Sequence record: LC788705.1
DNA length: 64,000 nt
DNA from: Escherichia coli phage NG_A1
Strand: one strand, 5' to 3'
The notes beneath the pieces were generated by a model. That model was not told the DNA's origin. It did no database searches and saw only the letters and a program-made list of their open reading frames with translations. Made by a program: the position numbers and the translations under genes. The stretch's first letter is position 1. Each line of letters begins with the position of its first letter. Positions 1 through 37,226 of the stretch are shown here, one piece after another.

Positions 1-200
1 ATGAGAATGATTCTCATTTAAAAAGCGGAATGAGAATGATAATAATTCGCATTTAAGAATGGAAGTGAGAATTATTCAGGAAGTGAAACGATTCTCATTT
101 AAAAAGCAGAATGATTCTCATTTAGAAAGTGGAACGCAAATAATAGTGATTCGTATTTAAGAACGGAAGTGAGAAACACTATTATTTAAGTTATCCACAG
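1..200. repeat. Cluster of near-palindromic GAGAAT(G/C)ATTCTC units plus a ~55-bp imperfect tandem direct repeat (approx 26-85 and 140-200)
   Basis: Palindrome copies read at 3-15 and 108-120, half-sites at 32-40 and 89-97; two ~55-bp units align at ~80% identity. Confidence 0.7.
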
Positions 201-300
201 ACTTATTAACAGCACGATTTGACTTGACAGAATCCTAGCCATTTTGGGGTGTTATTAACAGACTTATCCACAGCTTATCCTACTGTATAAATATACAGTA
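181..300. repeat. Inverted-repeat arm A (~120 bp) carrying DnaA boxes
   Basis: Reverse complement of 4321-4440 aligns over ~120 bp with scattered mismatches; TTATCCACA at 191-199 and 264-272. Confidence 0.8.
191..272 (+). promoter_or_regulatory. Two consensus DnaA boxes (TTATCCACA) at 191-199 and 264-272
   Basis: Exact 9-mer matches to the E. coli DnaA box consensus TTATNCACA. Confidence 0.6.
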
Positions 301-483
301 TTCCTACGCAGTGAATAATTCTAATATAGCGTTAAAACGTCCTAGATCGCATTCTAACGCGTTTAATTTTGGTGGGGATACTAAAACACGGGCAAAATTG
401 GAGGAGGCTTGAAAATTAGTTAGCTCGCTAACGATCACACAAGGCGACACGTAACACCCTAATCATTAGCAGGCTAACCATCG

Positions 484-530
484 CGGGCGCGGTCAAATGA
501 GAATCATTCTCATTTGAGAATTGGGGGCAC
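484..530 (+). repeat. ~40-bp element CGGGCGCGGTCAAATGAGAATCATTCTCATTTGAG, copy 1
   Basis: Similar element recurs in direct orientation at 10506-10544; contains the GAGAATCATTCTC palindrome. Confidence 0.6.
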
Positions 531-666
531 TTCCCGATAGTTGCGCCCCGTGATTATTATAGTAGCGGGCAACCGTTACGCTTTGCCCACTCCCGCCACT
601 CATCTTGATGCCTAGACTTGCGACGGCGTACTAAAAACCGCTTGTACCAGTGATTAAACCATCGTT

Positions 667-870
667 TCATAAACCCTCCTCCGGTAGTCGATGCGTGATC
701 TTCTCCTCCTCCCCGTAGGAATCCACCAAATACTGATAATAACCATCGTGATCATAAATCACTTTATCATATTCGCCCCGCTCGACCGCTTGCCGATTCT
801 CCGGCGTATCTGGCACGTAAAAAACATCAACCATTGTACTGATTTTGGTTACAATAATTTTATTGCTCAT
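667..870 (-). CDS. Hypothetical pre-early protein (67 aa), last gene of the minus-strand operon
   Basis: ORF with GGAG Shine-Dalgarno (TAACGGAGCGTTATT-ATG). Confidence 0.55.
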   Translation of the reverse strand: MSNKIIVTKISTMVDVFYVPDTPENRQAVERGEYDKVIYDHDGYYQYLVDSYGEEEKITHRLPEEGL

Positions 871-885
871 AATAACGCTCCGTTA

Positions 886-993
886 TTAAAAATTACCATA
901 TATTCCCGGCCAAATTTTACTAGTAACATAAGTTACTATTCCTGCCGTAATTATGCTATAAACTACTAATAAGGTAAACATTAAACCAGACAT
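886..993 (-). CDS. Small hydrophobic peptide (35 aa, MSGLMFTLLVVYSIITAGIVTYVTSKIWPGIYGNF)
   Basis: Hand-translated; AGGAG RBS upstream; predicted single TM helix; below the ORF-track size cutoff. Confidence 0.4.
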   Translation of the reverse strand: MSGLMFTLLVVYSIITAGIVTYVTSKIWPGIYGNF

Positions 994-1001
994 AATAACT
1001 C

Positions 1002-1097
1002 CTAGTAAATATATTTTTGCCAATGGTGGCGAACGTTGTCGCCACCAGCGGAATCATTAGCTGCCTTAACATTACCAACGAAAATATATAATTTCAT
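1002..1097 (-). CDS. Small peptide (31 aa) containing an internal 8-bp-stem hairpin
   Basis: Hand-translated; GGGAG RBS upstream; short, speculative. Confidence 0.3.
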   Translation of the reverse strand: MKLYIFVGNVKAANDSAGGDNVRHHWQKYIY

Positions 1098-1115
1098 AAT
1101 AACTCCCGTTATTAA

Positions 1116-1274
1116 TTATTTGCGTAAATATACGCTTGCTAGTAGTCCGGCTAGAAAGCCCGCTGATACACCAAATGAAGCCACACCGGGAACACTAGCA
1201 CCATGAGCGTATAAAGCCCAGCAAATTACATAAGGCAACAACGGAAACATGCCAGCTATTAAAAACTTTTTCAT
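1116..1274 (-). CDS. Small hydrophobic membrane peptide (52 aa)
   Basis: Hand-translated; ATGA start/stop overlap with upstream gene; AAGGTGG RBS; two hydrophobic stretches. Confidence 0.45.
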   Translation of the reverse strand: MKKFLIAGMFPLLPYVICWALYAHGASVPGVASFGVSAGFLAGLLASVYLRK

Positions 1275-1615
1275 TGCGCCACCTTTCGAAATGCTGTTTC
1301 AATACTATCAGCCGTGGATTGAATATATGCGCCTTTCATTATCAGGCGCTCGGTGCATACCTTGCGGAAAATATTAATAAAATCCTCTTCATTTTCTGCA
1401 ATCAATGCTTCCCCCATGACCTGAATATCACAAGATGCAAAGGTCAAAAATTGAAACGCTAGTTCACGGGCAACGACCGCATTAATTTTATAATGCGCCT
1501 TGCCCTCATAAATATTAACCACGCCTTTATAAACTGGTGAAAGCTGATTTAAATAGCTTGCTAATAATGCCGGACGGCAATTAGCAACAAAACGATTGCC
1601 CTCATAAATTACCAT
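1271..1615 (-). CDS. Hypothetical pre-early protein (114 aa from ATG; track ORF begins at upstream TTG)
   Basis: ORF track 1271..1630; ATG at 1615 overlaps the stop of the upstream small ORF (ATGGTAA). Confidence 0.55.
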   Translation of the reverse strand: MVIYEGNRFVANCRPALLASYLNQLSPVYKGVVNIYEGKAHYKINAVVARELAFQFLTFASCDIQVMGEALIAENEEDFINIFRKVCTERLIMKGAYIQSTADSIETAFRKVAQ

Positions 1616-1734
1616 TGCGACATCCCCCAAATAGTTGCACCGATAAAGATTAGCTGGCTAACGATGATTAACATAAAACCAATTGAAGGCAGGACGCCCC
1701 AATATTGTAACGCCCTTTTAATTTGCTGAATCAT
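1609..1734 (-). CDS. Small hydrophobic peptide (41 aa)
   Basis: Hand-translated; ATGA overlap with stop of 1731..1943 and ATGGTAA overlap with next start. Confidence 0.4.
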   Translation of the reverse strand: MIQQIKRALQYWGVLPSIGFMLIIVSQLIFIGATIWGMSQW

Positions 1735-1943
1735 AATACCCCACGAAATGCAGCGTAAAAGGTGGCAAAATGTTTAACCGTTTCAGCGATCACGTTGCCG
1801 CGCTTGTCAAATTTCTTTTCAGTAACACGAAAGGCATTCTTATTACGTGCTACGTATTCGATTTTACAATCTTCACGCTCAAACGTGTTTACATCCACCA
1901 GCTTAAAGCCTTTCGAACGTGCAAGAGAAACGTTACGAATCAT
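1731..1943 (-). CDS. Hypothetical pre-early protein (70 aa)
   Basis: ORF track; translationally coupled to both neighbours. Confidence 0.5.
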   Translation of the reverse strand: MIRNVSLARSKGFKLVDVNTFEREDCKIEYVARNKNAFRVTEKKFDKRGNVIAETVKHFATFYAAFRGVL

Positions 1944-1945
1944 TT

Positions 1946-2095
1946 TTATTCTCCTTTACCAGTCATGCAGCCTAGCAGATAAGAAAATGCGGCAATTACC
2001 GCGCCAATAGTAACCGCGTGAACACCGAAAGCTATTGCAAACAAAGATAAAATAGCGCCCAAGATACCAGCTAAAATAGCTCGAAAAATAACCAT
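1946..2095 (-). CDS. Small two-helix hydrophobic membrane peptide (49 aa)
   Basis: Hand-translated MVIFRAILAGILGAILSLFAIAFGVHAVTIGAVIAAFSYLLGCMTGKGE; GGGGAG RBS. Confidence 0.45.
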   Translation of the reverse strand: MVIFRAILAGILGAILSLFAIAFGVHAVTIGAVIAAFSYLLGCMTGKGE

Positions 2096-2144
2096 TTGTA
2101 ATACTCCCCTAGTTAGTGGGGCGAAAGTAACGCCCCGTTATTAA

Positions 2145-2375
2145 TTACATTAAAACAATTTTTGCCGCTTGTTTTTTGGTACAGTGTTCCGCTTTCAGCG
2201 TGTCCAGCAAAAAGCCAGCCGTTTGCTGATCGATTTTATCGGCGTTGTATAGTTCTTGAATGGTGTTATAAGTTTTAGCAATGCCGAACTCCTGTACCAT
2301 TTCATGAATGATGACGCGATTAGATACCCAGCCTTGCGCGGTAAACAGATGACTAGCAGAAGAATACGCAACCAT
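2145..2375 (-). CDS. Hypothetical pre-early protein (77 aa from the RBS-supported ATG)
   Basis: ORF track 2145..2408; GGAGG RBS precedes internal ATG at 2375. Confidence 0.5.
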   Translation of the reverse strand: MVAYSSASHLFTAQGWVSNRVIIHEMVQEFGIAKTYNTIQELYNADKIDQQTAGFLLDTLKAEHCTKKQAAKIVLM

Positions 2376-2480
2376 TTTAAGCCTCCAAATTTTTGGGAAA
2401 ATTTTCAACCGTCCTTAAACGGTGTAAAGGCATTATAACAAAAAGGCCACCATAAAAGGCGACCTTTACAAAACTTTACA

Positions 2481-2975
2481 TTAGACTACTTGTAGGGATT
2501 CAATATTGAAACATCGTTTCAATTCGTCATGCAAAACAGCGTATTCCTCCCATCGGGTACTATCAGGAATATAAACAAGCTGTTTTAATCGGTTTGCATA
2601 TATTACCGCTTTGTTATCGACTATCTCGACGCCGCCATATTTAATAATTAATTTCATGACGGAATTAATAGGATCGCCGCCGTTTACATATGTGCCGGAT
2701 TTACTTAACTGATAATGATAAAGGCTTGCGTATACGTTTTCATTTTCATACCATTCGCCAGTATCCTCGTCTTCATAGCCATCGCTACCAAAACGAGAAG
2801 CATTATCAATAGCCATTTCATGAGCGAAAGCGTCCAGATCCGTACCAGCAGGAACAAAGTATTCCTCGGTATTCCCTTCTCCGCAATAGCCAGTATGGCA
2901 ATCGACTAAAATGATCATATCATGTTTAGCCGTGCTCACTTCCCCTAGCGAGAAGCCGTATTTTTCCTCAGCCAT
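2481..2975 (-). CDS. Hypothetical pre-early protein (164 aa), acidic, Cys/His motif CHTGYCGEG
   Basis: ORF track; no domain recognised. Confidence 0.55.
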   Translation of the reverse strand: MAEEKYGFSLGEVSTAKHDMIILVDCHTGYCGEGNTEEYFVPAGTDLDAFAHEMAIDNASRFGSDGYEDEDTGEWYENENVYASLYHYQLSKSGTYVNGGDPINSVMKLIIKYGGVEIVDNKAVIYANRLKQLVYIPDSTRWEEYAVLHDELKRCFNIESLQVV

Positions 2976-3040
2976 TAGTTAGCCTCCTATTAATTAACAA
3001 GGGAATAGTAAAGCGGGGTAACAATCCCCGCTTAATATTA

Positions 3041-4058
3041 TTACTCGCTTTCGGTGTTAGTGGTAAAAGTAGAAATATCGATACCTTTTACCATTTCATC
3101 AATCATTTCAGCGATGTTAAAACTTTGCACCATTTCCAGCATTGCCGCTTCCATAGCCGCCCCTGCTACCGCTTTCGCCTTTTGGTTATTTGGGGCGTAT
3201 TGGTCAACCGCTACACTCAGCAGGTTAGCAATCACTACTCGACCAATAGGCGTATCGATATAACCTTTGATCATGAATGGTGCTTTTTTAGCCGCTACTT
3301 TCGTAATTTGAGTTAATGCAATTTTACCCGCCTCCAGTTTTGCAGCATTTACAACAGCGGATTTATTGGCGGCAACAATGTTAGCAATCTTGGTCATGGT
3401 GTTTTTTCCTTTGTTTTCAGTAGTTTGAGTGTTAACGCTTTGAGTGTTAGAATTTACAGCATGGTTTTCTACGCTGTCAATAATCTGATCTTCATCTTTC
3501 CAGAAAGAAAAACCAGCGCTTTCTATATCCCCATCATAAATATATGGGTATAGCTCCCGTGGTAACAAAAAATTACCGTCGTCATCAAAAGCCATTATAC
3601 CAGTATATTGAGATCCGTCGTTATCCGGCTTATGCCATCCAGCTGGTAAATACTTCCAGATAACATCTAAAAATCCCTCAATACTAGAAAGTCCGTTTAT
3701 CAGATCAAGCCCAATAAGCTCAAAACCATTTATATTAAATGATTGACGGCCTGAATTGCTATGATACGCAACAATATTATTACCCTGCGCAATAATAAAA
3801 TCGGTATCCGGCCCCGCTCCCCTGCCTGTAAAGATATGGCAATCCCGATTATATATATAAAACTAGCGTTGCCCCTTGCTTATATAATGGTAGAAAACTA
3901 TCCATATCATAGGCGTCATAATCATCAAAAAAGTTTTGATGAATAGTTTCAGCCTTGTTAATAAAATGTTTAATGCTGGTTGACTTGCTACCGTCCAGCA
4001 GGTTGCGCAATGCACCTTTTAAAACGGTGGCATTATCAGGTTTATACAGCCTCATTTG
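3041..4058 (-). CDS. Hypothetical pre-early protein, apparently interrupted by a +1 frameshift near 3849-3865 (fused product ~340 aa)
   Basis: Track ORFs 3849..4199 and 3041..3595 are joined by an 89-codon stop-free, start-less stretch (3596-3862) in the frame of the downstream ORF; strong GAGGGAGG RBS before ATG at 4058. Confidence 0.4.
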
Positions 4059-4320
4059 TTCGGCCTCCCTCGTTAATCGGTGAGTGAATGATATAGATAT
4101 TTGTTCACTAGGGGCAAGAAAAAAGAAAATGTTTTTTATTCCTTGCCTAGCGCCTAGTTTTATGCTAACCGCGCAGCGGTACAGTAAAGAGCAAAACACG
4201 GTGAAGCCACCAGGGCGACTGGTGAAGGCTTTACTTTAATATTACCCCACCGCATTTAGCTCGTTAGAAAGCGTTTTAGGCCGCTTAAAATTAATTGCAG
4301 TCGTTAACACTACCTTTCTA

Positions 4321-4440
4321 CCCTGTATATTTATACAGTAGGATAACATGTGGATAAGTCTGTGGATAAGTCCTTATATCGCCGCCTATCGTGTCAAGTT
4401 AATTTACAAAATGTATAAGGCTGTGGATAACTTAAATGAT
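4321..4440. repeat. Inverted-repeat arm B (~120 bp) carrying DnaA boxes
   Basis: Reverse complement matches 181-300; TGTGGATAA at 4349-4357, 4361-4369 and 4422-4430. Confidence 0.8.
4349..4430 (-). promoter_or_regulatory. Three consensus DnaA boxes on the complementary strand (4349-4357, 4361-4369, 4422-4430)
   Basis: Exact reverse-complement matches to TTATCCACA. Confidence 0.6.
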
Positions 4441-4620
4441 AGTGGTTCTCACTAACTAATTTATGCAGTTATTGTATAACAAAATATAGTTAGTTGGCTA
4501 ATAGGATTTTAAAGTGATTATGAGTCTGCTAATTAAACCTGAAAAACTCATTAGGTAGTCTGCTAATGATTTTGATATAATATAATAGAGATTAAATTAA
4601 TAACATAAGGAAACAATTAG

Positions 4621-5139
4621 ATGCCTAAATATAAAGATATAGATTATGACCTTTTTAATAGTTACTTTTATTATGATGAAACAGCGTTATCATTTTTACG
4701 TTGGCGGGAGGATCACGCCGTCGCAGGTGGTTTAAATGGTAATTATTGGCAAGTTGAACTATTAGACATGGGACAATTCAAAGTACATAGAATTATCTTT
4801 TGTATAATGAATGGCGGTATAGATAGCGAGCTAATGATTGATCATATTGATCGTAACACACGTAACAATAACATCTGGAATCTTCGCGCGGTTGATAGTT
4901 CGCAGAATAATTATAATCGTACTCCTAGTGAGTATGAAAACTGTAAGCGTGCTAATGGTATCCCTAGAAACATTTACGTTAATAAAGTTCGCCCCCGTGA
5001 TAGTTTCGGGCGTGATTATTTAACTGCTCAAATTAAGAATCCTATTACTAACAAGCGTGTTAGTAAGTCTGGTTATGATTTACAAGAGTTATTATTATGG
5101 CTTGAAGCTAAAAAAGCTGAATTTGGAATTGTCAATTAA
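4621..5139 (+). CDS. HNH homing endonuclease (HNH_3-type)
   Basis: Motif IDHIDRNTRNNNIWNLR; AT-rich flanks; extended -10 TGATATAAT upstream. Confidence 0.7.
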   Translation: MPKYKDIDYDLFNSYFYYDETALSFLRWREDHAVAGGLNGNYWQVELLDMGQFKVHRIIFCIMNGGIDSELMIDHIDRNTRNNNIWNLRAVDSSQNNYNRTPSEYENCKRANGIPRNIYVNKVRPRDSFGRDYLTAQIKNPITNKRVSKSGYDLQELLLWLEAKKAEFGIVN

Positions 5140-5637
5140 TTAATTTTATAAAATAACTCGTTTAGTCTTGATTTTTAAAAGTCAATATCTTTTACAACTA
5201 TTTTTCAATTTTGCTTTTGTTAAATATTTGTTAAATCGAAAATAAGCCGCCTAAAACGCCCTAGAACGCGATGAAGTTTTTAGCCATGCCATTGCATTGC
5301 CTGCCCTCGTTTATCGCTGCCACGAGCTTTTTAGATTTTGTCAAGTAGGGCAAAGCAAATATAAATGAAAAATTACTTGCCTATCTGCTTTATTTTGTGG
5401 TATTCGCGCGCCCGTTTCTTTTAATTTTAGGCCGTCGCCGCACGGTGTCCGGTGAGTTTTACCTTTACGTTTCTTTACAAAAATAAGGTTGCGCCGTTTT
5501 TAGTATTTGCTATTATTTATCTCGTAGGACGGCAACGGACTACAACGGCGGGAAGTTTACCGCCGCGCTCTTTAAAAATTGGGTACATCTTAAAGCCTAT
5601 CGGCGGTAAACTTATTACATTATAAGGAATCGACGAT

Positions 5638-5841
5638 ATGAAACAAACGCTTTTGATCACTGGCAAGCCTATTAAGGCACTAGATAGCAAAACAAAAAAC
5701 TTGTTGACAGTAGCACAAAGATCAGTAAAATATAGATTCACGCAGTACAAGAAAGGTCGCCAGCAAGGTCTGGAAATGATCTGGCGAAATATTATGATTG
5801 ACCTAAAAGAAAATCATAAAAAATTGCAAAAAATTGTTTGA
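5638..5841 (+). CDS. Small basic protein (67 aa) flanked by a 24-bp inverted repeat
   Basis: ORF track; Lys/Arg-rich; inverted repeat at 5581-5604 and 5859-5882. Confidence 0.4.
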   Translation: MKQTLLITGKPIKALDSKTKNLLTVAQRSVKYRFTQYKKGRQQGLEMIWRNIMIDLKENHKKLQKIV

Positions 5842-6071
5842 CAACCTAGCCGATAGGTTTTAAGATGTACCCAGTTCGATAAGAGCGATAACTTGATAAA
5901 ATTTGACGGTCGGTGCTTACCATAATGCATCCCGCCCCCTAACGGGATATAGCGGCCTACGTGGAGTTCTTTAAAATTGATTATATTGGCGAGCGGATTG
6001 TTACTTATTACCTGCTGTTACTTTCTAGCAGGTAATGCGGAACAATCCCCAAATAACTAGGAGTTTATATT

Positions 6072-6323
6072 ATGCAAAACGTTATTACCGCGCCGAAAGT
6101 TGGTCAATCCGTCTTCATTCCTTTCGTTACTAAAACGGATGAATTAACCGGAAAGGCCGAACGTATTAAAGGTGCGGCGCTTATGCCGTTCGATACAATC
6201 GACGCGGTATACGCTGAAAATGAACGTAGTAACAACGGCAAGCCCGTTTTTAGCGTTCGCGTTAAATCCGGCGATGTTGTAAAGGTTGTTCAACGCAACG
6301 AAAAATGGGAAGCTGTATTGTAA
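6072..6323 (+). CDS. Hypothetical pre-early protein (83 aa)
   Basis: ORF with AGGAG RBS; followed by a stem-loop at 6337-6362. Confidence 0.55.
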   Translation: MQNVITAPKVGQSVFIPFVTKTDELTGKAERIKGAALMPFDTIDAVYAENERSNNGKPVFSVRVKSGDVVKVVQRNEKWEAVL

Positions 6324-6419
6324 ATTAGTGTTAACTTTATATCCCCTTATTTCAGGGGGATATAACGATTAACATTAAGTTAATCTAATCCCTTAAATTA
6401 AACTAATAGGAGTTACATC

Positions 6420-6827
6420 ATGACTAACGCTAAAACCGCAAAATTCGCATGGAATGAAGAAAACACTCAGAAAGCTGTTTCCATGTATCAACAGTTAATT
6501 AATGAAAACGGTTTAGATTTCGCAAATAGCGACGGCCTGAAAGAGATTGCAAAAGCAGTAGGCGCGGCCTCCCCCGTATCCGTTCGCTCAAAATTGACCA
6601 GTGCAAAAGCCTATCAAAAAAGCGATAAGCCGCGTAAAGTTGGCGGCGGTAGCTCTGTGCGTAAAGCTCACTATGTGCGCGTTATCGCTAAACATGCTAT
6701 TGATTCCGGCATTATCAAAGACGCCGATGATTTGGCAAGCCTTGAAAGTGCAAAACTTGAAACGCTGGACGCAGTAGCGCAATTGTTAGGCGTTGCCGAT
6801 GAAGTAAAACAGGCCGCAGGCGAATAA
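6420..6827 (+). CDS. A2: Putative pre-early DNA-binding protein, A2-like (135 aa)
   Basis: Size and position immediately upstream of the A1-like gene; basic C-terminal half; AGGAG RBS; name assigned from memory of T5. Confidence 0.45.
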   Translation: MTNAKTAKFAWNEENTQKAVSMYQQLINENGLDFANSDGLKEIAKAVGAASPVSVRSKLTSAKAYQKSDKPRKVGGGSSVRKAHYVRVIAKHAIDSGIIKDADDLASLESAKLETLDAVAQLLGVADEVKQAAGE

Positions 6828-6917
6828 TAGTTATATCTTGCCCCCTTTTAGTGAGGGGGCAATAATATAACTGTTTAGCGATAGTTATTTTCTTCCCTTA
6901 AATCAGGAGTTTTAAAA

Positions 6918-7115
6918 ATGGTTTTCTCCCCTACTGAATCTTTAATTCTAGGCTTATTTATTATGGCGGCCTCCCTATTATTCGCTTATTTTCAAAATGA
7001 TTTAGATTCGTATTATTTTAAACGTAAATCTAAATTAGCAAAACGTTTAGGTCTGCTTTGTTTTATCGCTGCCGTTGCTTGTGGTGTTAGTTCTAGCCTA
7101 GTGCCTTTAAATTAA
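6918..7115 (+). CDS. Small membrane protein (65 aa, two predicted TM helices)
   Basis: ORF with CAGGAG RBS; hydrophobic stretches LILGLFIMAASLLFAYF and LLCFIAAVACGVSSSLV. Confidence 0.5.
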   Translation: MVFSPTESLILGLFIMAASLLFAYFQNDLDSYYFKRKSKLAKRLGLLCFIAAVACGVSSSLVPLN

Positions 7116-7205
7116 TATTGCAAATTATAACGCCTATTGTTCGAGGCGTTATATTTGGCAATATTGCCGTTACTAACCTAATCCCTTTAATGGAGTTTTA
7201 TTACT

Positions 7206-8876
7206 ATGATTATTTCCGCAGAAAAACAAACCGTTATCCTGAAAATGGCCGCTGACTTTAACTTCTACGGTAAACGCCTGCGCGCCACTAAATTGGAAGT
7301 TTGTGACGATATTTCGAAAGCGGTATACGATACTACTAAACACTCCACCGCCATTTGTGATTGGTTGGAAGCAAATAAACCAGCGAAACCAAAAGCGGCA
7401 AAAGTAGCAAAAGCCATTAAAAACGATGAGCGCCCAGAAGCGGCGGGAATTGTTTCTAGTACGGTTGAGCAATGGGAAGTAAAACAGGGTAAACGCTTTA
7501 TTATTACGTCGATTCAAAATAATACTTTCCCGCATAAAAACTTTTTAGCCTCACTGGAGCAATTTGCTAAATATATCGGTGCTGATTTGCTTGTTTCTAA
7601 GTATATTTATAATAAAAACGGTTTTCAAAATGGGGAAGGTGCGGATGGAATCAAATATGATTCCGCGTTCGATAAATATATTTGCAGCAAAAACGTGTTT
7701 TTAAATAACCGCCGCTTTGCTTTCATGGCTGAAATTAATGTTTTGCCAACCGCAGATTATCCGCTTTCTGGATTCGCCGAGACTGCAACGGCTTTAAATA
7801 TTGAGGGGCTGGCAATTGGTCACGCTAAAATTACCGCTGAAAGCGTGCCAGCTTTAAAAGGTGAAGTAGTGCGCCGTATGTACTCAACCGGAACGGCAAC
7901 GCTCAAAAACTACATTCAGCAGAAAGCAGGACAAAAAGCGGAAGCACTGCATAACTTCGGTGCGCTTATTGTTGAGTTCGACGACGACGGGGAATTTTTT
8001 GTTCGCCAGCTTGAAACAATGGACGAAAGCGGGGTGTTTTATGATCTGAACGTTTGCGCTACTCCTGCCGGATGCTATGAAACAACGGGGCATGTTTTAG
8101 GCTTGCAATATGGCGATATCCACGCCGAGAAATTAGATGAGGAGTGCGCCGCCGCATCTTGGGGGCATGGTGATACTTATGGGCTTGTGGATATTCTTAA
8201 ACCAAAATATCAGTTTGTACATGACGTGCATGATTTTACATCGCGCAACCATCACAACCGCGCATCGGGTGTATTCCTAGCGAAACAGTATGCAGCCGGA
8301 CGTGATAAAGTTCTGGATGATCTTATCGATACGGGGCGCGTACTGGAATCAATGGAGCGCGATTTTAGTCAAACAATCATTGTTGAATCGAATCACGATT
8401 TGGCGCTATCCCGTTGGCTTGATGATCGTAATGCTAACATCAAAGACGATCCAGCAAACGCCGAGTTATATCACCGCCTGAATGCTGCAATTTACGCGGC
8501 AATCGGTGAACACGACGAAACGTTTAACGTGCTAGATTATGCGTTGCGCAAGGTTGCAGGTTGTGAATTTAACGCCATTTTCCTAACGACTGACCAATCT
8601 TTCAAGATTGCAGGTATTGAATGCGGCGTACACGGTCACAATGGCATTAACGGGAGCCGTGGCAATCCGAAACAGTTTAAGAAATTGGGCAAATTAAACA
8701 CGGGGCACACCCATACCGCCAGCATTTACGGCGGCGTTTATACCGCTGGCGTGTCTGGTAGTCTGGACATGGGTTACAACGTTGGCGCGTCAAGCTGGAC
8801 GCAAACGCATGTTATTACCTATGCAAACGGTCAGCGCACTTTGATCGACTTTAAAAACGGTAAATTCTTTGCGTAA
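7206..8876 (+). CDS. A1: Pre-early protein A1, metallophosphoesterase-like (556 aa)
   Basis: Phosphoesterase-like motifs GDIH, GHGDTYG, ESNHD, GVHGHNG; 556 aa matches T5 A1 size as I recall. Confidence 0.75.
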   Translation: MIISAEKQTVILKMAADFNFYGKRLRATKLEVCDDISKAVYDTTKHSTAICDWLEANKPAKPKAAKVAKAIKNDERPEAAGIVSSTVEQWEVKQGKRFIITSIQNNTFPHKNFLASLEQFAKYIGADLLVSKYIYNKNGFQNGEGADGIKYDSAFDKYICSKNVFLNNRRFAFMAEINVLPTADYPLSGFAETATALNIEGLAIGHAKITAESVPALKGEVVRRMYSTGTATLKNYIQQKAGQKAEALHNFGALIVEFDDDGEFFVRQLETMDESGVFYDLNVCATPAGCYETTGHVLGLQYGDIHAEKLDEECAAASWGHGDTYGLVDILKPKYQFVHDVHDFTSRNHHNRASGVFLAKQYAAGRDKVLDDLIDTGRVLESMERDFSQTIIVESNHDLALSRWLDDRNANIKDDPANAELYHRLNAAIYAAIGEHDETFNVLDYALRKVAGCEFNAIFLTTDQSFKIAGIECGVHGHNGINGSRGNPKQFKKLGKLNTGHTHTASIYGGVYTAGVSGSLDMGYNVGASSWTQTHVITYANGQRTLIDFKNGKFFA

Positions 8877-8931
8877 ATAAATTATTTCCCCTAGCGGCTT
8901 GAAATATAGCCGCTATTACAGGAGTCAAAAA

Positions 8932-9189
8932 ATGAAAGTTACATTACCCAAAACATTGGACGAAAAAGTATTCATTTCACCGGATGAAATGGAATCTGAT
9001 AAAGTTTACAGCTTCGGGCCTATCCTAGCCGCCAAAACTAATACGGATGGTATTATTTCCGTCGATTCCCGTGATAACGATATTGTCCCTTTTGATGATG
9101 ATGGCGCTTTTTATGAGTGGCTAAGCGATAATAATTTACCCGTAAACGGTGAATTAACGCCGTACCAGATGCAGATTATTATCAAATAA
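8932..9189 (+). CDS. Hypothetical pre-early protein (85 aa from the RBS-supported ATG)
   Basis: ORF track 8899..9189; AGGAG RBS precedes ATG at 8932. Confidence 0.5.
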   Translation: MKVTLPKTLDEKVFISPDEMESDKVYSFGPILAAKTNTDGIISVDSRDNDIVPFDDDGAFYEWLSDNNLPVNGELTPYQMQIIIK

Positions 9190-9227
9190 ATTAAATCCAT
9201 TATTAAACTAATTGGGGTTTTATAAAT

Positions 9228-9626
9228 ATGAAAAAGCAAAATATTCCATTCGATCGCGCTCAATCTTCTATTGTTCTGGTTTATTCTAATGGCGAACGTT
9301 ACCACGTCGAGGCGGGGCACGTTATTGATGAATTACTAGACTTTAATGACGCTTTGCAGGTTACTACCTTTGCCTATACGCAAGCCCGCGCAAGTAGCTA
9401 CATTAAGGCCGTAGGCGTTTATGTTGACACGGTGAAGCAAGAAACGATTATCATCGACGCAGTAAAATCCGGTCTAGCCTTTGCAGTTGTCGCGCCTTGC
9501 CCCGCTTGCCTCGATGATCAATTGATCAGCGCAAAGGTATATACCTGCGCGGGTATCCGTTCCCATGTATCAGGTGAGGATGTTAGTTTTATCGCTGATG
9601 CGTTGGCTTTTGGTCTGGCGTTCTAA
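9228..9626 (+). CDS. Hypothetical pre-early protein (132 aa)
   Basis: ORF track; followed by a stem-loop at 9640-9668. Confidence 0.5.
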   Translation: MKKQNIPFDRAQSSIVLVYSNGERYHVEAGHVIDELLDFNDALQVTTFAYTQARASSYIKAVGVYVDTVKQETIIIDAVKSGLAFAVVAPCPACLDDQLISAKVYTCAGIRSHVSGEDVSFIADALAFGLAF

Positions 9627-9705
9627 TAGTTAATTTATTATTACCCGCTATTTATAAGCGGGTAATGCTGAATAAACTAAATCCCTTAAATGGAGAACGT
9701 AACAA

Positions 9706-10440
9706 ATGAATAAAGCTATTATTAATTCTTTCCGTAATTTCCCGCATATTTCCCGCGTCATGATTTGGGATTTAGACGGCACTATCATTAATTCTTTCCA
9801 TCGCGTAGCGCCTTGCTTTGATAGCGAGGGCAATTTAGATTTAAATAAGTATAAAAATGAAGCCTGCAAACATCATTTAATAATGCAAGATTCCTTATTG
9901 CCATTGGTTGAATATATGCGCCAGTGCATGAATGACGCAAATACTTTAAACATTATTTGCACCGCTCGACTGATGAGCAAGTCGGACTATTATTATTTGC
10001 GTAAACAAGGGTTGCGCGGTCGTGGCGATAGCAATATCCGCGTGTTTTCTCGCGATACACTGCATAAATATTTTAAAGCTGATAAAGTTAGCGAGATATA
10101 CCACAGCAAAGACGCAGTATATAAATCTTATTACTTTGAATTATTTAAACAATTATATCCGAACGCTGATTTTACAATGATTGATGATCATAAAGGCGTG
10201 CTATCAGCGGCGGCATCATACGGATTTAAAACGCTGGATGCGCAAGCCGTTAATGATATTCTATCAATAGGTGTAACATTAATAGGTGAAACCTTTATTG
10301 ATGAATCGCTCGACGATGATAATGATTATCAATTCCTAGCTGACCGTTTAAAATTATGCTGGGAAGGTATGACCGAGGAAGAACGCGCAGAATATAGTTG
10401 CAGCCCGCAACAATATATTGAGAAATTAAAAGTTGCCTAA
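9706..10440 (+). CDS. dmp: HAD-superfamily phosphatase, T5 dmp-like 5'-deoxyribonucleotidase (244 aa)
   Basis: HAD motif I IWDLDGTII near the N-terminus; TGGAG RBS; position matches the T5 pre-early set. Confidence 0.65.
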   Translation: MNKAIINSFRNFPHISRVMIWDLDGTIINSFHRVAPCFDSEGNLDLNKYKNEACKHHLIMQDSLLPLVEYMRQCMNDANTLNIICTARLMSKSDYYYLRKQGLRGRGDSNIRVFSRDTLHKYFKADKVSEIYHSKDAVYKSYYFELFKQLYPNADFTMIDDHKGVLSAAASYGFKTLDAQAVNDILSIGVTLIGETFIDESLDDDNDYQFLADRLKLCWEGMTEEERAEYSCSPQQYIEKLKVA

Positions 10441-10505
10441 CAATTAAAGTTGAAATAGTCACGGTGTGTAATGATAACATGCCGTGACTATTAGCTTGCT
10501 AAGTA

Positions 10506-10544
10506 CCGGGCGGTAATGAGACTCATTCTCATCTGGAGGGCCAC
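10506..10544 (+). repeat. ~40-bp element CCGGGCGGTAATGAGACTCATTCTCATCTGGAG, copy 2
   Basis: Direct repeat of the element at 484-530, ~10.0 kb downstream, just after the dmp-like gene. Confidence 0.6.
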
Positions 10545-10591
10545 TGGACACACCTCCATGTGTAATCTTATGAAATTTGGCAAAAAGTCAA

Positions 10592-34747: not shown

Positions 34748-35083
34748 ATGAGTACTGAAAATAGAGTTATAGACTTAGTGATAGATGAGAAAGTACCTTA
34801 TGGTCTAATGATGCAATTCTTAGATGTTGATGATAGTACTTATCCACCTACAAATACCCCTGTTAACTTAACGGGGTATTCTCTAAGGGGTACTATAAAG
34901 GCCGGGCTTGATGAGAATGCGGAAACTTTGGCATCTTTTACTACTAAAATTATTGATGCTGCTCAAGGTGCCATAGCTATAAGTTTACCTGTAGAGGCGG
35001 TAGATAATATTGGTGAAAAAGCTACCAAAGAGAGAGAGATAAGTATAACCCTCGCCAACGTTTTGCAGGATACTATGATATAA
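34748..35083 (+). CDS. Hypothetical tail-associated protein (111 aa)
   Basis: ORF between the pb4-like and tail-fibre genes. Confidence 0.4.
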
Positions 35084-35171
35084 TTATGACACGAGATGTC
35101 ATAGGATCAGCTATTAGCTCTTTTCGTATAATGGAGGGTAAAGTATTTATCAGTGATGGGGTAACTAGATA

Positions 35172-37226
35172 ATGGCAATAACTACTAAGATTATTGTACA
35201 ACAAATATTAAATATTGATGATACTAAAGCTACTGCTAGTAAATTTCCTAGATACACAGTAACTCTTGGAAATTCTATTAGCTCTATTACTGCTAATGAG
35301 TTAGTATCCTCTATAGAGGCCGCTGCTAAATCTGCTGCGGCTGCAAAAGATTCTGAAATAGCTGCTAAAACCTCAGAACTTAATGCTAAGAATTCGGAGC
35401 AGGAAGCTGCTATTTCTGCCGGGGCTTCAGAAGCTTCTGCTACTCAGTCTGCTACATCTGCTACTCAATCTGCTGCATCAGCTGATAAATCTGCAGAATC
35501 AGCCGCAGCAGCTAAAGTATCCGAGACTAATGCGAAGGCTAGTGAAACTAATGCTGCAGGATCTGCAACTTCTGCCAACCAATCTGTAACTACTATTCAA
35601 GGGCTTAAATCAGATGTTGAACAATTAAAATCTGATACCCAGGCCATTAAAAATAGTGCTGTAACAGAGACAGCAGCTTTAAAAGCAGATGTTGAGCAAT
35701 TAAAAACAGATACACAAGGTATTAAGGATAGCACGGTATCTGAGACAACAACTTTAAAAAACCAAGCTGCAACTTCTGCAACTAGTGCTGCTAATTCTGC
35801 TACTGAAGCAGGAAAACAAGCTACTAGTGCTGCCAATAGTGCTAATACTGCTAAAACTGAAGCCGACCGTTCAAAAACTGAGGCTGATAGATCAGAAGCT
35901 GCTGCTAATTCTACCCCCGACATTCAACCTCTTCCAGATGTATGGATACCGTTTAATGATTCTCTAGATATGATCACCGGCTTTGCACCAGGCTATAAAA
36001 AAATAACAGTTGGTGATGAGGAAATAACACTGCCTAGCGACAAGATTGTTAGCTTTACTCGTGCATCAACTGCGACCTATATCAATAAGTCCGGTATATT
36101 GACCATTGCTGAAGTTGACGAACCGCGATTTGAACGTGAAGGTTTGCTGATTGAAGGACAAAGAACTAACCTGCTAATCAATTCAACTGATCCGACTAAA
36201 TGGAACAAGTCATCAAATATGATCTTAGATAGATCAGGTGTAGATGATTTCGGATTCCAGTACGCAAAATTTACATTAAAACCAGAAATGGTAGGGCAAA
36301 CTTCAGCGATTAACATAGTAACCGTTTCCGGCAGCAGAGGTTTTGATGTAACAGGAAATGAAAAGTATGTAACCATATCATGCAGGGCGCAAAGTGGGAC
36401 TCCAAATTTAAGATGCCGATTACGATTTGAAAACTACGATGGATCTGCTTATACATTTTTGGGTGATGCTTACGTAAATCTGACAGATTTATCAATTGAA
36501 AAAACTGGCGGCGCTGCAAATCGTATTACTGCAAGGGCTGTTAAAGATGAAGCAAGCAAATGGATTTTCTTTGAGGCAACAATTAAAGCACTTGATACAG
36601 AAAATATGATCGGTGCAATGGTGCATTATGCACCAGCAAAAGGGGGAGGTACTGGTGTAGATGATTATATTTATATTGCGACCCCTCAAGTTGAAGGTGG
36701 GGCATGTGCTTCATCCTTTATTATTACAGAAGCAACTCCAGTGACAAGGGCTAGTGATATGGTTACAATGCCAATCAAAAACAACCTTTACAATTTGCCG
36801 TTTACAGTACTTGTGGAAGCTAATAAAAACTGGAGTATAACGCCAAATGCTGCGCCTCGTGTTTTCGATACTAGAGGTCATCAATCTGGTGCGGCAATTA
36901 TTCTTGCTTTCGGATCTGCCGAAGGCGATAATGATGGATTCCCTTATTGCGATATAGGTAAATCAAACAGAAGGGTTTACGAGAATGCAAAACTAAAAAA
37001 GATGATTATGGGAATGAGAGTAAAGAGTGATTACAATAATTGCTGTGTAAGTAATGCCAGAATATCAAGCGAAACAAAAACGGAATGGAGATACATACAA
37101 TCAACGGCTACTATAAGGATTGGAGGACAAACAAATACTGGAGAACGACATTTATTTGGCCATATCCGAAACTTTAGAATCTGGCATAAGGAACTAACTG
37201 ATAGACAAATGAAGGAGTATGTATGA
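35172..37226 (+). CDS. L-shaped (side) tail fibre protein, LtfA-like (684 aa)
   Basis: Ala/Ser/Thr-rich N-terminal coiled-coil with repeated KSDVEQLKSDTQAIK units; C-terminal globular domain; no C-terminal chaperone domain. Confidence 0.65.
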   Translation: MAITTKIIVQQILNIDDTKATASKFPRYTVTLGNSISSITANELVSSIEAAAKSAAAAKDSEIAAKTSELNAKNSEQEAAISAGASEASATQSATSATQSAASADKSAESAAAAKVSETNAKASETNAAGSATSANQSVTTIQGLKSDVEQLKSDTQAIKNSAVTETAALKADVEQLKTDTQGIKDSTVSETTTLKNQAATSATSAANSATEAGKQATSAANSANTAKTEADRSKTEADRSEAAANSTPDIQPLPDVWIPFNDSLDMITGFAPGYKKITVGDEEITLPSDKIVSFTRASTATYINKSGILTIAEVDEPRFEREGLLIEGQRTNLLINSTDPTKWNKSSNMILDRSGVDDFGFQYAKFTLKPEMVGQTSAINIVTVSGSRGFDVTGNEKYVTISCRAQSGTPNLRCRLRFENYDGSAYTFLGDAYVNLTDLSIEKTGGAANRITARAVKDEASKWIFFEATIKALDTENMIGAMVHYAPAKGGGTGVDDYIYIATPQVEGGACASSFIITEATPVTRASDMVTMPIKNNLYNLPFTVLVEANKNWSITPNAAPRVFDTRGHQSGAAIILAFGSAEGDNDGFPYCDIGKSNRRVYENAKLKKMIMGMRVKSDYNNCCVSNARISSETKTEWRYIQSTATIRIGGQTNTGERHLFGHIRNFRIWHKELTDRQMKEYV

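Follow-up and report, generated by a model that had tools for sequence, protein, structure and literature searches.

Gene 011 of phage T5 (T5.011; YP_006839; '37 kD pre-early protein') lies in first-step-transfer DNA, at 6495..7505, between the hegG HNH endonuclease gene and the 012-017 block, and it has its own annotated promoter and terminator. The annotation of T5 st0 (AY692264) describes it as '37 kD pre-early protein; unessential gene located in del1 region'. T5 remains viable when hegG through 017 are deleted, and the authors of that study, who count 011 among the dispensable genes, write that its function 'resists functional predictions' (bioRxiv 10.64898/2026.04.02.716235). Gene 011 is toxic to E. 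coli when it is ectopically expressed (bioRxiv 10.64898/2026.04.02.716235; PMC8201957). We found no paper in the literature that mentions its protein family (DUF7566), and the daunorubicin/Bas33 paper does not single out gene 011.

In two sequence records, the gene is already split. In T5 ATCC 11303-B5 (AY587007, 6417-7426), a run of A4 has become A3 at codon 243, which yields ORF011 and ORF012; two other T5 records are intact. In JLBYU43 (OK272477, 5493-6486), the T5.011 homologue is frameshifted at a T7 run near codon 100, which yields JLBYU43_9 and JLBYU43_10.

Genes that are divided between two frames are also known from other systems. E. coli prfB, which encodes RF2, uses +1 frameshifting at CUU UGA C, together with an upstream SD-like element. 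In the simple-sequence-repeat contingency loci of Haemophilus, Neisseria and Campylobacter, a change in the number of units of a tandem repeat within the coding region turns the gene off.

Here, we consider a locus in 64,000 nucleotides of DNA from Escherichia coli phage NG_A1 (LC788705.1). We refer to this entire stretch as the window. The phage is T5-like (Tequintavirus), and the first ~10 kb of the window is the terminal-repeat, first-step-transfer region in reversed orientation, with the structural genes next. An earlier note on this DNA had proposed that a pre-early gene is split by an apparent +1 frameshift, and that it is either disrupted or expressed by recoding.

Two reading frames at the locus

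The upstream frame (ORF-A; 3849..4055, minus strand) runs from the ATG at 4055-4053 to the TAA at 3851-3849, and its product has 68 amino acids. By translation and tblastn, it corresponds to codons 1-67 of the T5.011 orthologue, followed by an out-of-frame Ile codon and the stop; in other words, there are 67 sense codons and then an ATA codon before the TAA. An extended form of ORF-A, at 3849..4199, is in the same frame and is counted from a GTG further upstream.

The downstream frame (ORF-B; 3041..3862, minus strand) is the +1 frame, and translation and tblastn show that it holds codons 68-336 of the same orthologue. It is preceded by a TAG at 3865-3863, is open from 3862, and has its stop at 3043-3041. 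If counted from its first ATG, at 3595, to 3041, ORF-B has 184 amino acids. The two frames overlap by 14 nt and are offset by +1 (which is equivalent to -2), so the frameshift that the earlier note described is real.

The 336-aa protein of KS_S14 aligns with both frames. In tblastn, residues 1-67 match ORF-A (frame -3, 98.5% identity) and residues 66-336 match ORF-B (frame -1, 94.8% identity). When we compared ORF-B to its relatives, we did not find any further stops or indels beyond the break.

The earlier note also placed the probable start codon at 4058, with a ribosome binding site. The ribosome binding site is present (4064..4071, minus strand): reading from the sequence, it is GAGGGAGG, 8 nt 5' of the ATG, and it is identical in T5. 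The ATG itself is at 4055, which is 3 nt from the proposed position.

Another part of the argument for a split gene was that ORF-B is open for 89 codons without an ATG, GTG or TTG before 3595, and that such a stretch is unlikely by chance. Translation confirms the 89 codons. As to chance, a composition model gives a probability of 4e-5 per stop codon for a start-free and stop-free stretch of at least 89 codons, or 0.32 such stretches expected in the window. Across all six frames of the window, stretches of this kind follow only 3 of 8163 stop codons, and the one in ORF-B ranks third longest. Because it is only the third longest in the window, we did not rely on the statistics of open reading frames. 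The stretch is unusual, but it is not decisive by itself, and the homology evidence decides.

The insertion and the repaired gene

Alignment of the nucleotide sequences places the break within a short repeat. The relatives read GTT TTA TAT AAT CGG, while the window reads GTT TTA TAT ATA TAA TCG G. From alignments and pattern scans, the frameshifting lesion is a (TA)5 tract (3850..3859, with no strand assigned), which has 4 extra bases as compared to the (TA)3 of the relatives. This tract is the sole (TA) run of at least 4 units within the 64-kb window. The 4-bp insertion is also the sole length difference across the gene relative to T5_ev212, EC100, BUCT632 and KS_S14. The junction had been described as a homopolymer run, and this was mistaken: the tract is a TA dinucleotide repeat that has gained two units (4 bp).

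Once the 4 bp are removed, the translation is 336 amino acids long and co-linear with the intact 1011-nt CDS of T5_ev212, EC100, BUCT632, VEc33, T5, and others. The repaired product matches the Pfam family DUF7566 (PF24450) from end to end (E = 1.4e-114, profile positions 5-336 of 336, and 383.7 bits against a gathering cut-off of 27). It also matches PHROG 4263 (E = 3.8e-167) and is 98% identical to gp010 of VEc33. These results bear out the suggestion of a single disrupted gene of about 340 amino acids. The note had proposed comparing orthologues, in case these were two independent genes, and the outcome was the opposite. The orthologues are single genes (for example, the homologous DNA of T5_ev212, EC100 and BUCT632 holds one 1011-nt CDS), and the claim of a disrupted gene stands. 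Members of the DUF7566 / T5.011 family have an uninterrupted frame of about 325-336 codons, and here the frame is broken at codon 68. As written, the locus reads as a disrupted allele of this family and not as a functional member.

The gene can be identified as the orthologue of T5 pre-early gene 011 from synteny, the profile match, the promoter, the ribosome binding site, and the terminator, which agrees with the proposal of a pre-early gene. As in T5, it lies in first-step-transfer DNA, with the hegG HNH endonuclease on one side and the 012-017 block on the other, and the layout of promoter, ribosome binding site and terminator is the same. Its repaired product is co-linear with the 336-aa T5 protein. 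The promoter, 5'UTR and ribosome binding site of T5.011 all align with the window. A promoter scan predicted a sigma-70-type promoter at 4088..4117 (minus strand), with a -35 element of TTGCCC, an 18-nt spacer, and a -10 element of TATCAT. This predicted promoter aligns with the NC_005859 promoter upstream of T5.011 (6411..6489) and with T5P4 in AY587007. A terminator scan found an intrinsic-terminator-like hairpin just past the stop codon (3011..3033, minus strand; an 8-pair stem with 6 GC pairs), which matches the position of the annotated T5 terminator (7534..7559). The gene order agrees with T5 and with 9 of the 10 contigs that have an identical HNH gene.

The locus differs from T5 in two ways: the 4 extra bases break the frame at codon 68, and a 164-aa gene (2975..2481), which T5 lacks, lies between the homologues of 011 and 012. 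This additional gene (2481-2975 in the window, minus strand) encodes an acidic protein and is present in many relatives (EC100, VEc33, ECOP18, KS_S14).

The layout of the record itself is also different from the T5 convention. Positions 1-10560 begin at about the inner boundary of the terminal repeat and run in reverse (017 to dmp). The genes for receptor binding, the terminase and the head follow directly after the terminal repeat. This layout means that the record is either the reverse complement of the T5 convention or a collapsed-repeat, permuted assembly.

The 4-bp gain lies in the short TA repeat at codons 67-68 and changes TTA TAT AAT to TTA TAT ATA TAA. The extra TATA could have come from replication slippage or from a tandem duplication of TATA. 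Because the gain of 4 bp shifts the frame, translation would end after 68 residues, within the N-terminal domain, and the resulting allele would be null or strongly hypomorphic. The phage would tolerate such an allele because it can grow on laboratory hosts without gene 011.

Distribution of the insertion

The (TA)5 allele was not found in any of 54 phage records: every full-length match to the 161-nt query spans 157 nt. In the phage collection that we searched, the closest full-length relatives are only 93-96% identical, so the collection does not contain this very phage.

We also considered 10 contigs that encode an identical neighbouring HNH endonuclease. Nine of these have an intact DUF7566 gene of 328-336 amino acids, and one lacks the gene. 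The (TA)5 allele is absent from 8 contigs with the identical HNH gene. For 5 of the 9 contigs with intact genes, the alignments reach the tract, and all five have (TA)3.

Larger collections gave the same result. A gapped pattern scan of IMG/VR and a metagenome collection did not find (TA)5; it found three more copies of the site, all with the 9-nt-gap spacing of (TA)3. The exact 46-mer across the junction has no match in the GTDB genomes. Among proteins, the best 120 homologous clusters from a collection of 5.8 billion proteins are all single full-length ORFs of 310-336 amino acids. Exact look-ups of the two fragments (68 and 184 amino acids) and of the 164-aa neighbour found none of them on record.

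Separately, we scanned IMG/VR for an 18-mer across the (TA)5 junction and obtained two contigs. Neither has similarity to the gene, and we rejected them as chance matches of AT-rich sequence.

The possibility of translational recoding

Could both frames be needed to make the protein? If ribosomes at UAU AUA UAA shifted by +1 (or -2) on the UA repeat, they would make the full-length protein with one or two extra residues, and this might lower the dose of a toxic protein. As in prfB, the shift point has a zero-frame stop, and the frame that follows is +1. Besides the exact +1 offset and the 14-nt overlap, the downstream frame is intact and lacks a start for 89 codons. Also, the encoded protein is toxic, so attenuation is conceivable. 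Finally, a -2 slip could move a P-site tRNA from the AUA at 3854-3852 to the AUA at 3856-3854, with perfect re-pairing.

However, conservation is a hallmark of programmed sites, and none of the orthologues that we checked has this shift site; they are all in frame. Given this lack of conservation, it is not a programmed site. A +1 slip from AUA to UAU would leave the tRNA without a match at any position. The stop lies in the context UAA-U, which is an efficient terminator. The nearest SD-like sequence, AAGGGG, precedes the shift codons by about 15-20 nt, as compared to about 3 nt in prfB, and it simply encodes a conserved K-Q-G. So, for programmed +1 frameshifting of the prfB/RF2 type, both hallmarks are missing here: there is neither conservation of the site nor the combination of +1 re-pairing and an SD-like stimulator at the right distance. 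The context of the stop is also strong.

Programmed -1 or -2 frameshifting would call for a downstream hairpin or pseudoknot, or for a known RNA family, and we found neither. The predicted minimum free energy for 3880-3770 (111 nt) is -23.6 kcal/mol, versus a mean of -23.3 kcal/mol for shuffled sequences (z = -0.09). A search of Rfam around the site gave no match at E values of up to 1.

The proposal of +1 recoding thus fares poorly, given a shift site that no checked orthologue shares and the lack of a stimulatory structure or Rfam element, and we consider recoding to be very improbable. There is no steric bar on the UA repeat to a -2 slip by the tRNA that decodes AUA, so traces of the full-length product are possible. 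With high confidence, ORF-A and ORF-B are one disrupted gene and not a case of programmed recoding, whether the disruption is a mutation or an artefact.

Protein architecture and possible separate expression of the two parts

To describe the protein, we used an AlphaFold2 model that was built from 35 homologues. The model is weak overall, with a mean pLDDT of 57.9. It suggests an N-terminal alpha/beta domain (residues ~1-184, with pLDDT of about 80 in the core), a disordered linker that is rich in N, T and Q (pLDDT below 35), and a helical C-terminal module (residues ~215-330). The C-terminal ~120 residues are almost invariant among the 35 homologues, and the C-terminal module recurs with other N-termini (PHROG 16673, and phages My1, Kamaji and RP7). 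When we compared the model to the PDB, no fold matched with E better than 0.78, and a search of BFVD returned only uncharacterised members of the family. In JLBYU40 and JLBYU43, the protein is labelled 'putative DNA N-6-adenine methyltransferase'; we rejected this label, as there is no Pfam match in support.

The architecture bears on the idea that the two parts function as separate proteins. The 68-aa N-terminal peptide would be one product, and the other would be a C-terminal protein that is initiated internally, at ATG 3595 or ATG 3397. The near-invariant C-terminal ~120 residues do behave as a module of their own, joined by a low-confidence linker. Furthermore, AAGGA precedes the ATG at 3397-3395, which corresponds to the invariant Met219 and opens the C-terminal helical module. 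There is also a sigma-70-like match (10 of 12 positions; TTGACA-18-TAAATT) at 3480-3451 on the minus strand. Together, the internal promoter-like match and the AAGGA might allow separate expression of the C-terminal module. However, in the model, the break at codon 68 falls within the predicted N-terminal alpha/beta domain, at the strand E63-67, and not at the linker. ATG 3595 does not have a Shine-Dalgarno sequence. The promoter scan is not enriched over shuffled sequences (9 promoters were found and 6.6 were expected). And no relative annotates or needs separate genes. We consider a functional split to be extremely improbable.

Real mutation or assembly artefact

An alternative to a real mutation is an artefact of sequencing or assembly. 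Under this explanation, the phage's DNA has (TA)3 and an intact 336-aa gene, and the additional TATA comes from library PCR stutter, base-calling or consensus polishing. As a check on the quality of the assembly, we compared ~75 proteins from KS_S14 to the window with tblastn and listed all of the gaps in the alignments. Among these ~75 genes, only two have uncompensated frameshifts, 011 and p132, and none has a homopolymer frameshift. The window contains 110 dinucleotide runs of at least 3 units, and only the tracts in 011 and p132 differ in unit number from KS_S14. These two tracts are also the only dinucleotide runs of at least 5 units in the 64 kb.

The p132 orthologue (a 140-aa collar protein; 34748-35169 in the window, plus strand) has a 2-bp gain, from (AG)4 to (AG)5, at 35029-35038. 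Its frame ends early after (AG)5, and the remainder of the protein continues in another frame. In 47 of 49 phage records, this tract is (AG)4. In Salmonella phage PMBT29, it is (AG)3 and the gene is annotated as two ORFs. Across 50 genomes, then, the tract has 3, 4 and 5 units, and it may be a slippage hot spot.

p132 is the attachment protein for the L-shaped tail fibres. Fibreless T5 that lacks p132 is a standard laboratory strain, and p132 and the fibres are dispensable in laboratory strains of T5 (PMC11313276).

The N-terminus of the 557-aa fibre protein of KS_S14 matches twice in the tail-fibre gene downstream of p132 (35172-37223 in the window, plus strand). Residues 1-97 match 35172-35462, and residues 10-557 match 35580-37223 with 72% identity. 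This suggests that the fibre architecture of the window's phage is different or mosaic.

We also asked if ORF-B has decayed. Its pairwise dN/dS ratios versus 9 relatives are 0.035-0.14, and the values upstream of the break are in the same range. The window has just 5 substitutions of its own, of which 3 are synonymous and 2 are not, and these are too few to date the frameshift by lineage-specific dN/dS. Because the downstream half is undamaged, the lesion is either very recent or present only in the assembly. The preservation of ORF-B is equally compatible with a very recent mutation, with an artefact, and with continued expression.

Several observations favor an artefact. The (TA)5 allele is unique among all of the relatives that we examined. 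The frame of ORF-B has been kept perfectly, with dN/dS of about 0.04-0.14 and no second lesion. The sole other frameshift in the window is also a gain in a dinucleotide repeat, from (AG)4 to (AG)5, which suggests a shared technical cause. In addition, the AY587007 and JLBYU43 records of the gene show single-base indels, which are typical of errors. A two-unit jump from a three-unit tract is not the commonest outcome of slippage either, and this counts against a real mutation.

On the other hand, the usual signature of sequencing error is homopolymer indels, and there are none among the ~75 genes. Only 2 of the 110 dinucleotide runs of at least 3 units differ from KS_S14, and both are in genes that are dispensable in the laboratory, as would be expected for mutations that had been filtered by selection. 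A 4-bp insertion is also uncommon as a consensus error. We regard an artefact as unlikely, though it keeps an appreciable share of the probability. A genuine loss-of-function mutation is clearly favored because there are only two frameshifts, neither of them is in a homopolymer, and both are in laboratory-dispensable genes. Overall, the gene is probably a T5.011 orthologue that was inactivated by a real 4-bp mutation in a TA repeat. We infer that the lesion is present in the phage's DNA, not just in the assembly, and that the full-length protein is not made.

Dinucleotide tracts as possible switches

The two frameshifts could also have a broader explanation. Short dinucleotide tracts in T5-like phages might be mutational hot spots that act as crude on/off switches, with (TA)n controlling the toxic host-takeover gene 011 and (AG)n controlling the fibre-collar gene p132. 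Variants in the off state would have an advantage on hosts for which the product is of no use or sets off a defence, and a later slippage event would bring the gene back. This would resemble contingency loci, in which a change in the number of repeat units also turns a gene off. However, the in-frame allele here has only three units, and nothing indicates reversibility. Contingency loci are expected to vary in tract length, and at the TA site we found no such polymorphism in ~65 other sequences. We consider switching to be quite improbable. A weaker variant of the idea is that (UA)5 may support low-level -2 slippage by ribosomes, which would give a trickle of full-length 011 protein.

Loss of gene 011 and implications

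The locus is an ordinary allele with a frameshift, in a known gene family that is dispensable. It resembles the alleles in AY587007 and JLBYU43, where a small indel also splits the gene into two annotated ORFs and sister records are intact. It differs from them in that those are single-base changes in homopolymers, whereas this is a gain of 4 bp in a dinucleotide repeat at codon 68. The gene has also been deleted. A T5.011 homologue is absent from a Logan contig (SRR20814964; 2460-3001 of that contig). In the phages Tennessee (OZ075147) and 1-23 (NC_048149), only the last 28 codons are left, and PHROG 23458 is that 37-aa remnant. Loss of T5.011 has therefore recurred, both in natural phages and in the laboratory.

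Nothing here alters existing knowledge of frameshifting. For annotation, the two ORFs are better recorded as one disrupted gene (a pseudogene, or 'frameshifted; T5.011 homologue') than as two hypothetical proteins or as a recoding site. More broadly, gene 011 has been broken independently in three records, including this one, and deleted in others, which is more evidence that it is expendable. If the mutation is real, then this phage is a natural 011-null strain, and probably a collar/fibre-null strain as well, and it would be a ready-made control for studies of the toxic protein 011.
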